DNA of 64,000 bases from a virus (IMGVR_UViG_3300026088_000018:3817-67816); one strand, 5' to 3'; shown: positions 37,197 through 42,624, numbered from the stretch's first letter. The notes: generated from the letters alone by a model not told the origin. Translations and numbers: made by a program.

Positions 37197-37467
37197 ACTG
37201 GTGCGTGTCGAGGTGGACCCGGCGCTGGTCCTCGCCGAGGTTCTGCTCCGCCTGCGTCACGCCGGCGCCGACGTGTCCACGGACCAGGGGTCCATGTCCT
37301 GCGCCTACAAGCACCTCACGGGGGTGCTCGTAGCGCTGGGTGTGCCGGTGGACGTGGGGGTGCTGGGTGAGGCGGATCTCCTGCTGCTGCGGTGCGTGGC
37401 GGCTAGAGGTCGGCGGGCGGGCGCTCCGGTAGCTCCGCGTCCGGCATGCGCAGGTACCAGCGGATGA
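37183..37467 (+). CDS. hypothetical protein
   Basis: Overlaps upstream gene; GC3-rich. Confidence 0.5.
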   Translation: MRSGELVRVEVDPALVLAEVLLRLRHAGADVSTDQGSMSCAYKHLTGVLVALGVPVDVGVLGEADLLLLRCVAARGRRAGAPVAPRPACAGTSG

Positions 37468-37579
37468 GTTCGCGCAGGACGGTGGCGCGGTCCGTACCGG
37501 CGGCGGCGGCTCGTTTGCCGAGGTCATCCCAGAGCGAGCCCATGCGGATAGTCCGCTTGGTCGTCCCCTTGCCCGGCAT
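37403..37579 (-). CDS. Ribbon-helix-helix repressor (putative Kor/TraR analogue)
   Basis: TTKRTIRM..LWDDL...A...GTDRATVLRELIRWY; divergent from transfer operon. Confidence 0.75.
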   Translation of the reverse strand: MPGKGTTKRTIRMGSLWDDLGKRAAAAGTDRATVLRELIRWYLRMPDAELPERPPADL

Positions 37580-37587
37580 GCGAGTGA

Positions 37588-37663
37588 GGGTGTCATGACA
37601 TTGGCCTTCTGGCGAGCTTGCGGGTGTCATGGCACCCATCCTACAGTGGGTGCCATGACACCC
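37588..37663 (+). promoter_or_regulatory. Transfer-operon promoter with three palindromic operators
   Basis: GGGTGTCATGACA (37588), GGGTGTCATGGCACCC (37622), GGGTGCCATGACACCC (37648); TTGCGG-N18-TACAGT with ATG 7 nt downstream. Confidence 0.75.
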
Positions 37664-38254
37664 GAAGATGGCGCCGCACGGGCCGCTGGGCGACCCGCGT
37701 ATTCGCTGTACGTGATACTCGCGGTGTTCCCCGCCGTCGCGGTCTGCGCGGCGATCACCCATCAGTACCTGCATCTCGCGCTGGCCCTCGCGATGACAGG
37801 ACTTACGTACCTCGCGATCCGCATCGTCGATCTAGCGAAGTTCGCGCAAGTCTGGGACGCGGCGATCAAGTACTCGAACGCGCGCCTGATTGCGGACGCC
37901 GACCGCGTAGAGCGCATGTTCGACCAGCTTCCGCCCAGAAGCTGCGGCGGCGGCTACCTCTACGCGCTTCTGTTCGACACGGGCGCCATCAAGGTCGGGC
38001 AGACCGAGGAACCCCGCACCCGTCTTCGCAAGCACCGCAGGGATGCGGATGCCTACGGCGTATCGGTGATCGACTTTTGGCTGTCGTCGCCGCATGTGGA
38101 GTTCATCCAGAACGAGACGGTCCTTCTCGCCCTGTGTTCTCGTGCCGCCCGTCGGAGCAAGAACGAGTACTTCCGTGGCATCGCGCTTGACCGGGTGATC
38201 CGGCTCGCTTCCACACTTCAGATGACGGCCGCCGTTGAGCAGGTCGCGCGATGA
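37655..38254 (+). CDS. Membrane-anchored GIY-YIG/T5orf172-like protein
   Basis: Two TM helices, then GYLYAL...IKVGQT..P..RL..H...E...EYF. Confidence 0.7.
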   Translation: MTPEDGAARAAGRPAYSLYVILAVFPAVAVCAAITHQYLHLALALAMTGLTYLAIRIVDLAKFAQVWDAAIKYSNARLIADADRVERMFDQLPPRSCGGGYLYALLFDTGAIKVGQTEEPRTRLRKHRRDADAYGVSVIDFWLSSPHVEFIQNETVLLALCSRAARRSKNEYFRGIALDRVIRLASTLQMTAAVEQVAR

Positions 38255-38994
38255 CCAGAACCCAGCTCAAGCGGATCCGTTGGGCTGTCCGCGGCGCGCT
38301 CGTGCTGGGCATCGCGGCGAGCATCACGGCGAACGTGCTCCACGCGGAACCGATCGCGGTAGCGCGGATGATCGCGGCGTGGCCGCCGGCCGCCCTGCTG
38401 ATCACGTTGGAACTGATCGCCCGGGTGCCCGTCCACCGCCGCGGATTGGCGGCCGTCCGCCTGCTCGCTACCGGAATCATCGGCGGTATCGCCGCCTGGG
38501 TTTCGTACTGGCACATGGCGGCCGTGGCGCAGCGCTACGGGGAGACCGGCGCCGCCCCATACCTGATCCCGGTCAGCGTCGACGGGCTTGTGGTGGTCGC
38601 CTCGATCTGCCTGGTCGAGATCGCTGGCCGAATCCGCGAGGTCGGTAGCGAGCCTGCCAAACTTCCCGTCGAAGTTCCCGCCGTTCAGCCGGAACCTGCG
38701 CAGGTCACGGCCGATCAGACCGCGGATGCGGTTCCGGCCGAGGTTCCTGCACCGGACGCGGAGCCGAGTGACGACGACGATCGCTCCGCCAAGACCCGCA
38801 AGATCCCAACGCCGTCGATCCCTCGTCGCCCGTTCGCTGTCACCCAGCGCGCGGCCGCGGCCATGCAGGCGGACGGGATGGACGTGCCGAAGATCGCGGA
38901 AGCCCTGGGTATCTCGGCTCGACAGGTGCGCAACGCGTTGAAGCCCGTTCCTGTCAACGGCAGTTCCCCCGGTCCGGAGCCGGACCGGGGTTAG
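38251..38994 (+). CDS. DUF2637/SpdA-like membrane protein with C-terminal HTH
   Basis: S..ANV.HA, IAAWPP.ALL...EL, AAWVSYWHM..VA..YGE, P.SVDGL; C-terminal IAEALGISARQVR. Confidence 0.8.
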   Translation: MTRTQLKRIRWAVRGALVLGIAASITANVLHAEPIAVARMIAAWPPAALLITLELIARVPVHRRGLAAVRLLATGIIGGIAAWVSYWHMAAVAQRYGETGAAPYLIPVSVDGLVVVASICLVEIAGRIREVGSEPAKLPVEVPAVQPEPAQVTADQTADAVPAEVPAPDAEPSDDDDRSAKTRKIPTPSIPRRPFAVTQRAAAAMQADGMDVPKIAEALGISARQVRNALKPVPVNGSSPGPEPDRG

Positions 38995-41647: not shown

Positions 41648-41742
41648 AAGCCGGAACGCGGAACGCTACGGCGTTCTCGCAGGCGGGAGGCGTTCCACGA
41701 TCCGTTCCGCGCGCGGAACGCGTTCCGAGCACTGCGGAACGC
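41586..41742. repeat. clt-like cluster of 8-bp repeats (CGGAACGC/GCGTTCCG)
   Basis: Exact or near copies at 41586, 41652, 41659, 41671, 41690, 41702, 41714, 41720 and 41735, in both orientations, at and just after the traB 3' end. Confidence 0.72.
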
Positions 41743-41762
41743 CGCGAGACTCGGAGGCATCG

Positions 41763-42005
41763 ATGCGCGTAACGATCGGTCTAGTGCTGATGGCGATTCT
41801 GATCTACCTCTCCGCGTGTGCCTGGGTGCCATTCGCCCGATGCTCCCGCTGCCACGGCACTGGCGTCCGGATGGGCAAGACCCGTCTGCTTCGTCGGCCG
41901 GTCGGCAAGCCGTGCCGTTGGTGTCGGCAGAGCGGCCGGCGGCTGCGGTGGGGGCGACGGGTCTGGAATCGGTTCGCCCGGATCCGGGCGGCGGCCGACC
42001 GGTGA
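41763..42005 (+). CDS. small membrane protein with DnaJ-type Zn finger (AICE-associated)
   Basis: TM helix, CSRCHGTG...CRWCRQSGRRLRWGRR; GGAGG RBS. Confidence 0.75.
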   Translation: MRVTIGLVLMAILIYLSACAWVPFARCSRCHGTGVRMGKTRLLRRPVGKPCRWCRQSGRRLRWGRRVWNRFARIRAAADR

Positions 42006-42238
42006 ACACCTTCGCCATCGGCGTACTCGTCGGCGCCCTCCTCATCGGCAGCCTCGGCGCCAGCTACCAGCGCACCGTCCGGGCCCGCTCCGACTGGGTG
42101 GGCCTGCGCAAGGCGCACCACGGCGCCCGCCGCACGTTCTGGCGGGAGCTGGGCGGCCTCGTCGGTGCCGCCCTGGCCCCGATCCTCGGCGTGGTCGCGC
42201 TGCTGACCGTCCTGTACTGGATCGGGCGGTCGCGGTGA
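42002..42238 (+). CDS. small membrane protein (Spd-like)
   Basis: GTGA coupled; two hydrophobic helices. Confidence 0.65.
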   Translation: MNTFAIGVLVGALLIGSLGASYQRTVRARSDWVGLRKAHHGARRTFWRELGGLVGAALAPILGVVALLTVLYWIGRSR

Positions 42239-42624
42239 ACGAGGTCGTCCGGGACTGGCCGGTCACCGAGGCCACCCGCACAGCCCTACGACTCGCCGAG
42301 GAACGGGGGCAGCTGGTGTCCGCCGAGCGTCGCGGCGACGTGGTCCGGGTGGTTCTGCGGGATGTCGTGGTTCGTCGCCGGGCGCAACCAACCACGACAG
42401 GACCACGACAGACCACCACACGACGCGCGGCCGTTGTCGGGGCCTCCGTCGGGGCTGGGCTCGGAGCTGCCGGCGCGGCGGCCTGGGGGGTTGTGGAGCT
42501 GTTCATCTGGGCGGCCGGGCACGTTGCCGTCATCCTCGGCGGGGCGGTCGCCCTCCTCTTCGTCGCTGCGCTCTTGACCCGCTTCCTGGTGGGTGGCGGG
42601 GACAGCCATCCCTGTAACCGGTAG
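42235..42624 (+). CDS. membrane protein (Spd-like)
   Basis: GTGA coupled; two C-terminal TM helices. Confidence 0.65.
   Translation: MNEVVRDWPVTEATRTALRLAEERGQLVSAERRGDVVRVVLRDVVVRRRAQPTTTGPRQTTTRRAAVVGASVGAGLGAAGAAAWGVVELFIWAAGHVAVILGGAVALLFVAALLTRFLVGGGDSHPCNR

Follow-up and report, generated by a model that had tools for sequence, protein, structure and literature searches.

A phage-borne module resembling the double-stranded DNA transfer systems of actinomycete integrative and conjugative elements

The Streptomyces plasmid pSVH1 encodes TraB, a protein that forms a hexameric membrane pore, reads 8-bp repeats through a winged helix-turn-helix (wHTH) domain and pumps unprocessed double-stranded DNA (dsDNA) (PMC3583192, PMC4447253). 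Integrative and conjugative elements of actinomycetes (AICEs) in the strict sense combine an integrase (Int), a Tra translocase and a replication protein (Rep) (Ghinet et al., 2011). Tailed phages have also been linked to such functions. In pZL12/PhiZL12, a Streptomyces plasmid-phage (Zhong et al., 2010, J Bacteriol 192:3747), a main tra gene together with two neighboring genes is reported to be needed for conjugal transfer (PMC3583192); PhiNon1 of Nonomuraea gerenzanensis is a plasmid-phage that integrates at tRNA-Val (PMC5431353); and Thoma et al. (2015) described SpdB2 homologues on phiC31 and VWB that might spread phage DNA (PMC4447253). Here we analyze a 64,000-nucleotide stretch of a virus record (IMGVR_UViG_3300026088_000018), hereafter the window, from whose first letter all coordinates are counted unless another record is named. 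It carries a region at 37403-42624 that encodes an FtsK-like translocase, Tra, and that a preliminary description had interpreted as the conjugation module of a tailed phage.

The annotated FtsK/SpoIIIE protein of plasmid pSG5, which we take to be TraB, shares about 30% identity with the motor of the window Tra and reaches the Pfam FtsK_SpoIIIE model (1.5e-11), which the window Tra does not. The systems also differ in that the pSG5 Spd-region protein has no sequence link to the DUF2637 protein of the window, and in their regulators, which are GntR/TraR in pSVH1 and pSG5 and a ribbon-helix-helix (RHH) protein in the window. What the window shares with the TraB/clt/Spd systems of these plasmids is architecture, namely a membrane-bound FtsK-like translocase with a C-terminal wHTH (predicted here), 8-bp repeats near its own gene, small translationally coupled membrane genes and a dedicated repressor, putative in the window (PMC4447253; Vogelmann et al., 2011, via PMC3583192). 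With AICEs it shares a tyrosine integrase with an attP matching a tRNA 3' end, a core of DUF2637, Tra and a small gene of zinc-ribbon type, an array of 8-mers at the 3' end of tra, an upstream GntR-type gene and a Tra that is 48-58% identical. Unlike AICEs, the window phage has no Prim-Pol or Rep_trans match, extends over 67.8 kb with virion, lysis and early-gene modules, and carries an RHH gene at the operon promoter. Given its virion genes and the missing replication matches, it is not an AICE in the strict sense.

pZL12 resembles what is proposed for the window phage in uniting a tailed-phage lytic cycle and conjugal transfer in one element. pZL12 is maintained as a plasmid with ParA and ParB (PMC4487206), whereas the window record has an integrase, an attP at tRNA-Val and no match to ParB_N (PF02195) or AAA_31 (PF13614), the two partition families searched; the window element is thus not a pZL12-type plasmid-prophage. 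pZL12 is also a Streptomyces singleton (PMC7157519), whereas the window type recurs in many records. With this precedent for a conjugating tailed phage, the idea of a conjugative phage is not wholly new. The preliminary description had implied more novelty than this; the anatomy, kinship, location and evolutionary signals reported below support its interpretation in part, but both pZL12 and the proposal of Thoma et al. came before. Searches of an open-access collection of the literature turned up no account of an integrating tailed phage that carries a complete Tra-clt module, nor of the cassette swap described below. The window phage is apparently a new integrative variant of a known phenomenon, and a widespread one.

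A further comparison is offered by pPaSha2 of Pseudonocardia alni (CP052773.1, 41,938 bp, circular, from a cultured strain), which is annotated with a terminase, portal, HK97 protease, major capsid protein, holin, Bet, integrase, DUF2637 and FtsK. With this complete tailed-phage gene set, pPaSha2 looks like a circular prophage or phage-plasmid. It resembles the window phage in combining those genes with integrase, DUF2637 and FtsK adjoining the lysis genes; it differs in its smaller genome, in a Tra that is 29.9% identical (E 5e-42) and belongs to a sister clade, and in having been deposited as a plasmid, which was typed as non-mobilizable. We found no published description of it. The 129-kb lytic Streptomyces phage Gilgamesh also carries a gene for an FtsK-family ATPase (gp10), followed by a membrane protein gene, but the identity is 26% (E 2e-4) and gp10 branches outside the group formed by the plasmid, AICE and window-family proteins.

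Tra and its clt-like repeats

Tra (39521-41647, plus strand) is a predicted membrane-anchored FtsK-like dsDNA translocase of 708 aa with a predicted C-terminal winged helix. It matches phrog_1358 ('FtsK/SpoIIIE-like', 5.3e-12), and its Walker A residues, G346, G352 and K353, and its Walker B residue, E462, do not vary across an alignment of 20 homologues (20 of 20). A hydrophobic stretch at residues 143-191 (Kyte-Doolittle scan) lies inside long helices (62-188) of an AlphaFold2 (AF2) model, which has a mean pLDDT of 66, with about 80 in the motor. At E 2e-9 to 4e-9, though with low TM-scores, Foldseek matched the motor best to the FtsK motor domains 2IUT, 2IUS and 6T8B and to TcpA, a coupling protein of conjugation. 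Modelled alone, the C-terminal 110 residues gave a pLDDT of about 95 and the order strand, three helices, beta-hairpin, helix, which is a winged-helix topology; all of their best structural matches were winged-helix DNA-binding domains, although weak ones (Foldseek E >= 0.027; VIA Z 5-6.4). The preliminary description of an FtsK/SpoIIIE-type translocase with transmembrane (TM) helices and intact Walker motifs is borne out by these results, and a wHTH-like C-terminus is predicted.

The repeats that such a domain might read lie at the 3' end of the gene. A clt-like array of six exact CGGAACGC copies and additional near copies occupies 157 bp (41586-41742), spanning the end of tra and the gap that follows, in agreement with the 8-bp repeat cluster noticed earlier. 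Over the 64 kb the motif occurs 14 times, against 7.0 expected from shuffles; six of these matches are in the array and eight elsewhere. None of 210 other 400-bp windows in the surrounding 22 kb contains any 8-mer more than four times. Similar arrays accompany related genes: within the 400 bp that surround the tra stop, 80 of 102 related loci have an 8-mer in four or more copies, and in 41 of them the count is above every background window. The commonest array motifs are CCGCGACC and CCGCTACC. A residue in the predicted wing is K or R in 39 of 42 CGCGACC loci, as against 5 of 33 CGCTACC loci, a suggestive sign that the array motif tracks the wing residue.

The comparison with L002, a contig of a near-identical phage from another metagenome, bears on the pairing of protein and repeats. 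DNA identity between the two is 94-100% as far as 41333, drops to 49-80%, and is back at 94-100% from 41934 onwards. Tra residues 172-600 are 99% identical with a dN/dS of 0.08, while residues 601-708 are 52% identical with a dS of 0.59, and the L002 array consists of GCGCTACC repeats where the window has CGGAACGC. Judged from this alignment, the exchange took place in one piece, a cassette of about 600 bp (41334-41933) that comprises the recognition domain, the repeats and the beginning of the gene after them. A constrained motor combined with a matched swap of domain and site is hard to explain unless Tra reads those repeats, which argues for Tra and clt being a working pair.

By descent, too, Tra belongs with transfer proteins. 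In tblastn searches it matched 44 actinomycete plasmid records (best E 5e-42), including small Streptomyces plasmids with the gene order GntR/XRE, DUF2637, FtsK, Prim-Pol; pSG5 TraB was found at 29.9% identity (E 2e-16). Among 50,697 GenBank phage records the sole match was the Gilgamesh protein. At least 1,225 homologues were present among 8,000 candidates scored in a large protein database, and a scan of one genome per species yielded 213 confirmed Tra loci. The 80 of these kept for comparison, at 48-58% identity, represent Micromonosporaceae, Streptosporangiaceae, Thermomonosporaceae, Frankia and further groups. Two chromosomal loci were annotated: L007 has DUF2637 and Tra, then Prim-Pol, DUF3631, Xis, Int and tRNA-Ala, and L022 has DUF2637 and Tra, then Prim-Pol, AAA_25, Int and tRNA-Gly. 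By these gene contents, both are classic small Prim-Pol AICEs. A Micromonospora rosaria contig (L026) encodes a Tra that is 54% identical and, going by the host species only, we guess that it may be pMR2 itself. M. rosaria is the host of pMR2, and Ghinet et al. use the term 'pMR2-type Tra' (PMC3218068).

A FastTree phylogeny of 112 sequences, rooted on two chromosomal FtsK proteins and returned with long-branch warnings, places in succession chromosomal FtsK, Gilgamesh, the pSG5 and pFP11 Tra proteins, and the window Tra family. The window Tra clusters with two sequences from IMG/VR (support 99), and the IMG/VR-borne Tra proteins as a whole cluster in the tree, with 9 label changes against 21.3 in shuffles. 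The tree thus supports the placement of Tra with plasmid and AICE Tra, away from chromosomal FtsK and the Gilgamesh protein, and on this point a phylogeny proposed in the preliminary description came out in favor of its view.

Several observations on the wider family arose alongside. PF01580, the Pfam FtsK_SpoIIIE model, also misses the Tra homologues in two complete Micromonospora genomes, in which it does find FtsK and EccC. Three homologues (P0003, P0022 and P0045), 1065-1093 aa long, align with just 50% of the query and bear the LAGLIDADG family PF14528, and by appearance are translocases that contain an intein; a 64,213-bp contig encodes one of them. In pPaSha2, the translocase (4807-6855, minus strand, of that plasmid) has at its C-terminus a weak match to DUF3631 (4.2e-4), the family of the protein that follows Prim-Pol in the AICE at L007.

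The phage genome and its integration site

The window comprises bases 3817-67816 of a 67,816-bp IMG/VR record, which is classed as 'linear' and has a CheckV completeness of 95%. PHROG scans placed minus-strand head genes near its left end (2197-7713), with the large terminase (TerL, 6175-7713), portal, head protease and major capsid protein (2197-3645), and minus-strand tail and lysis genes near its right end (50151-58822), with the tape measure (55064-58822), Dit, minor tail proteins and endolysin (50151-51671). E-values for this virion set range from 3.4e-66 (TerL) to 5.4e-18 (Dit), and together with the integrase the set identifies a temperate, siphovirus-type member of the Caudoviricetes. 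The contig ends between head and tail genes, which fits a circular or circularly permuted phage genome and not a prophage excised from a chromosome. An early region on the minus strand (8817-32019) encodes an anti-repressor, HNH endonucleases and a methyltransferase. Megablast of 33000-47500 against phage and plasmid collections returned no match.

A tyrosine integrase (33346-34566, plus strand; Pfam Phage_integrase 7.2e-10, phrog_1 9.1e-35) adjoins a 51-nt attP core (34649-34699, minus strand) equal to the 3' end of host tRNA-Val(GAC) genes. Two Micromonospora genomes and one Dactylosporangium genome have tRNA-Val loci that match the core at 100% identity; the value is 92% for Spirillospora and 87% for Longispora. 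Other contigs in three metagenome runs diverge precisely at 34650 and 34699, and this divergence at the edges of the tRNA-Val identity marks the site as the attP core. On this evidence the host is probably a member of the Micromonosporaceae. ARAGORN had called an 80-nt tRNA-Val(GAC) at 34650-34729; its 5' part matches no locus, and we rejected it as a real tRNA gene, only the 3' 51 nt being genuine.

The preliminary description had named a chimeric assembly, joined at about 34.7 kb or 45.8 kb, as what would undo its case. Independent contigs bridge both junctions. Two contigs of the other metagenome cover both between them: L005 extends from early genes to the N-terminus of Tra (95%), with Int, GntR (96%) and XRE (98%) between, and L002 extends from Tra (89%) to a minor tail gene (99.7%), with Ro, the lysis genes and lysin between. 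In the run that is the likely source of the record (X1), eight unitigs tile 31001-51000 at an even depth of 10.8-11.7, and a relative's 63,036-bp contig from another study is collinear over 34670 to 51000. Two further runs (X2 and X3) held only 0.19 of the sampled words, and X3 was used solely for the long collinear contig.

More distant relatives keep the arrangement. G007 (71,339 bp, with direct terminal repeats, 100% complete) has Int at 99%, GntR at 100%, XRE at 98% and lysin at 98%, with Tra at 52% and different structural genes. In G006 (63,108 bp) the entire order is preserved, Tra being 61% and TerL 37-39% identical, and the complete G009 (40,026 bp, with terminal repeats) combines TerL, portal, capsid and DUF2637 with a Tra at 64%. 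The order Int, regulators, Tra, lysis is common to L005 plus L002, G006, G007 and L094; synteny in related phages, which the preliminary description had suggested looking for, therefore recurs. Of 24 Tra-bearing IMG/VR records searched, 15 contain the large terminase family phrog_9, four of these with terminal repeats, and two isolate proviruses match the window TerL. The flanks of L003 were mostly uninformative in PHROG scans, and its phage nature was read from TerL, portal and capsid matches. A TerL match in M. carbonacea (G001) lies on a contig that could not be linked to the Tra locus L063 and was not counted. Taken over these assemblies, the module is truly part of the phage, on one molecule with it. 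G007 is also an extreme mosaic: its anti-repressor is 100% identical, no match could be detected for its capsid, its tape measure and most of its tail genes, and its TerL matches only at E 4e-4.

Regulators, small genes and neighboring features

Rightwards from attP, the region is laid out as genes for GntR, XRE and RHH proteins (all minus strand), operators, the plus-strand operon and a second RHH gene (minus strand). Each feature that had been listed for the plus-strand operon between attP and the lysis genes was found where it had been placed or close by. The first gene (34826-35086, minus strand; Pfam GntR 1.5e-15) encodes a short GntR-type helix-turn-helix (HTH) protein of 86 aa without an effector domain. 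By tblastn, 30 of 106 loci with Tra have a GntR-like match, which in most lies upstream of tra; identity is 96-100% in L005 and L088. It is followed by a gene for a 475-aa XRE-family HTH regulator (35708-37135, minus strand; Pfam HTH_31 2e-12, phrog_5823 3.3e-58), a candidate phage repressor.

Divergent from the operon lies a gene for an Arc-like RHH regulator (37403-37579, minus strand; phrog_6506 2.7e-4, a weak match). The RHH gene and three palindromic operators had both been recognized before, and both are present; the gene itself, however, is likely to encode 58 aa and not the 123-aa open reading frame (ORF). The phrog_6506 match covers residues 64-111 of that ORF, and the start at 37579 was read from the sequence. 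Immediately upstream of the gene, at 37588-37663, are three operator-like palindromes, GGGTG[TC]CATG[AG]CA. The operator pattern GGGTGYCATGRCA has five matches at three sites in the window, all within this interval, against 0.51 expected, and 0 of 100 shuffles reached five. The same region includes an 18-nt perfect inverted repeat (I4) and a direct repeat family (D1). A second Arc-like RHH paralogue (42626-42823, minus strand; phrog_6506 3.1e-4) converges on the end of the operon.

The operon opens with a gene (37595-38254, plus strand, with a start at 37595 or 37655) for a membrane protein with two hydrophobic helices and a T5orf172/GIY-YIG-like C-terminal domain (phrog_23624 6.2e-10; Pfam T5orf172 0.0043, under the cut-off). 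Its stop overlaps the start of the gene for an integral membrane protein that has four predicted TM helices, DUF2637 and a C-terminal HTH (38251-38994, plus strand; Pfam DUF2637 9.4e-10, HTH_23 1.6e-5). A DUF2637 homologue was found by tblastn in 31 of the 106 loci, mostly just upstream of tra, and DUF2637 is annotated beside tra on pFP11, the NBC_00562 plasmid and pPaSha2. Four TM helices and a DNA-binding motif are also described for SpdB2 (PMC4447253). Three micro-ORFs of 42, 45 and 43 aa follow (39024-39445, plus strand) with a repeated junction of stop, ribosome-binding site and start; this junction repeat, D6, is present in two copies at 100% identity, and the micro-ORFs sp1 and sp2 are matched in L005, L088 and L094.

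Beyond tra and a gap of 116 bp, the three small membrane genes of the preliminary description correspond to ORFs within 41763-42624, all on the plus strand. The first after tra (41763-42005) encodes a small protein with an N-terminal TM helix and a CxxC...CxxC zinc-ribbon-like motif, a homologue of which was found by tblastn in 58 of the 106 loci, mostly just downstream of tra. The second (41999-42238, its start inferred within the ORF 41816-42238) encodes a small two-TM protein of no Pfam family that is 46-83% identical in L002, L086, L088 and L094. The last gene of the operon (42235-42624) encodes a 129-aa protein with a C-terminal TM hairpin, likewise of no Pfam family, with a dN/dS of 0.28 against L002. 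NCBIfam scans of ten module and neighboring proteins gave sub-threshold matches only.

Further features lie around the module. At 43304-43332, the plus-strand unit that follows has a promoter-like site close to consensus. This site (TTGACA-17-TATATT, 11 of 12 positions) is overlapped by a 10-bp G+C-rich hairpin, the pair spanning 43297-43332 (plus strand) upstream of the gene set 43339-45781. Between the transfer module and the lysis genes are a P-loop kinase gene (44909-45781, plus strand) with weak Pnkp similarity (1.1e-4) and a Ro60/Rsr-like gene (45843-47417, minus strand; NCBIfam Rsr 1.2e-5, far under the cut-off), the latter retained in L002 (87%) and G006 (75%). A glycosyltransferase-like gene (752-2113, minus strand; phrog_34859, 4.9e-17) lies directly downstream of the major capsid gene. 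The 1252-aa tape measure (55064-58822, minus strand) has as its best PHROG match an 'endolysin' family, phrog_971 (2.5e-89, residues 704-1212), which suggests that it carries an embedded cell-wall hydrolase domain.

Possible functions of the module

We give a probability of roughly 0.55 to the reading that the window derives from a temperate, tRNA-Val-integrating siphophage of a Micromonosporaceae host with a stable AICE-type dsDNA transfer module, which would offer a virion-independent route (conjugation, intramycelial spread or both) beside infection. We infer Tra-clt binding, translocation, a helper role of the small proteins, RHH control and actual transfer as follows. Once the RHH repressor leaves the three operators, the operon would be expressed. 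Membrane-anchored Tra hexamers would bind the CGGAACGC array on the circular phage genome through their C-terminal winged helix, and would pump the unprocessed double-stranded circle over the envelope or a septal cross-wall into a neighboring compartment or mycelium, with the DUF2637 protein and the small membrane proteins assisting DNA passage. In the recipient, the genome would integrate via Int and attP or start a lytic cycle.

A number of results weigh against this reading. Tra did not reach Pfam FtsK_SpoIIIE (PF01580) under E 0.01, FtsK gamma was absent from the fold matches of its C-terminal domain, which were generic winged-helix domains only, and the dN/dS of the whole gene against L002 is about 0.5. 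Tested on pairs that are independent in the phylogeny, the association of wing residue and motif did not reach significance: of 8 pairs, about 4 were concordant and 0-1 opposite (p about 0.125). No similarity (E = 1) links the DUF2637 protein to the 404-aa protein encoded upstream of traB on pSG5, which itself has no DUF2637 match and which we guess to be SpdB2; the gene had been introduced as DUF2637/SpdA-like, and the first half of that label holds while the second is without sequence support. No replication initiator was recognized among ten early ORFs scanned by PHROGs. Prim-Pol (PF09250) and Rep_trans (PF02486), the two Rep models searched, of which the latter presumably covers RepSA, have no match in the 67.8-kb record, in line with the earlier remark that no RepSA was visible. 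No NUDIX/Pif-like gene was seen among 20 window ORFs scanned. Finally, a 68-kb circle is far larger than the 9-24-kb AICEs tabulated in PMC2440964.

Of the other explanations, the one we take most seriously, while thinking it unlikely, is that the module serves intramycelial spread only, Tra and the membrane proteins moving DNA over septal cross-walls after infection or induction and so raising lysogenization or burst yield, with no transfer between separate mycelia. The wealth of small membrane proteins in the module, the mycelial growth of the Micromonosporaceae hosts that attP implies and the suggestion of Thoma et al. that SpdB2 homologues might spread phage DNA (PMC4447253) all suit it. 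It fits less well with the presence of both tra and clt, which are said to be sufficient for intermycelial transfer of Streptomyces rolling-circle plasmids (PMC3583192), and with the position of the closest module relatives in AICEs. Lower still we rate a translocase put to some other use, such as helping the replicating circle to segregate or resolve, keeping out or interfering with AICEs, plasmids or phages in the same host, or mobilizing host chromosomal DNA. FtsK-family motors, as the fold matches recall, also act in chromosome segregation; lytic Streptomyces phages such as Gilgamesh, unable to be conjugative prophages, have FtsK-like genes as well; and a joint swap of domain and repeats could reflect pressure against cross-talk with competing elements. 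Yet the repeats are clustered in clt-like fashion at a single site beside tra and are not spread over the genome, and the neighborhood of DUF2637, Tra and zinc-ribbon gene is that of AICEs and conjugative plasmids.

That the module is a passenger, captured from an AICE by recombination and carried as neutral or decaying cargo without a role in the phage life cycle, seems improbable. Such capture would be in keeping with a strongly mosaic phage group, as G007 exemplifies, and with a module for which the Rep searches (Prim-Pol and Rep_trans) came back empty; but all ORFs are intact, several diverged phages have the module in the same place, and Tra proteins from IMG/VR records group together in the phylogeny. 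It is weakened by the strong purifying selection on the Tra motor between two phages and by the joint exchange of recognition domain and clt, which have remained a matched pair. An AICE joined to phage fragments by misassembly at about 34.7 kb and 45.8 kb would account for two breaks between unitigs assembled from the short reads of the source run, one at the attP core (34678 to 35349) and another around 45828-45855, and for a record without a terminal repeat. The first break arises because the tRNA-derived core is common to many organisms (bin depth 259). With both junctions bridged in L005, L002, the terminally repeated G007 and the 63-kb contig of another study, and with depth even at about 11 over all eight unitigs, a chimera is very hard to sustain.

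Beyond the window, we put forward tentatively, and at somewhat less than even odds, that it represents a widespread unnamed class of temperate actinophages that are simultaneously integrative conjugative elements. In these, the AICE backbone of attP, regulators, DUF2637, Tra, clt and Int would be kept and the Rep module replaced by a whole phage, giving elements of 40-70 kb that may move as dsDNA without virions through mycelia and into receptor-less hosts, and that may keep private transfer specificities by exchanging the cassette of about 600 bp. As the common Pfam FtsK_SpoIIIE model misses the Tra family and pPaSha2 is filed as non-mobilizable, mobilome and AICE surveys that rely on labels may miss or undercount such elements. 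The paired swap of recognition domain and repeats provides a natural system for how TraB-type motors choose their DNA, and elements of this kind might help to bring large DNA into Micromonospora and its relatives, genera in which genetic manipulation is difficult. If the module works, the host range and spread of the phage would not be set by virions and receptors alone, and a lysogen could pass its prophage on by hyphal contact, phage-resistant cells included. The boundary between phage, AICE and plasmid would then be blurred in bacteria that make many antibiotics.

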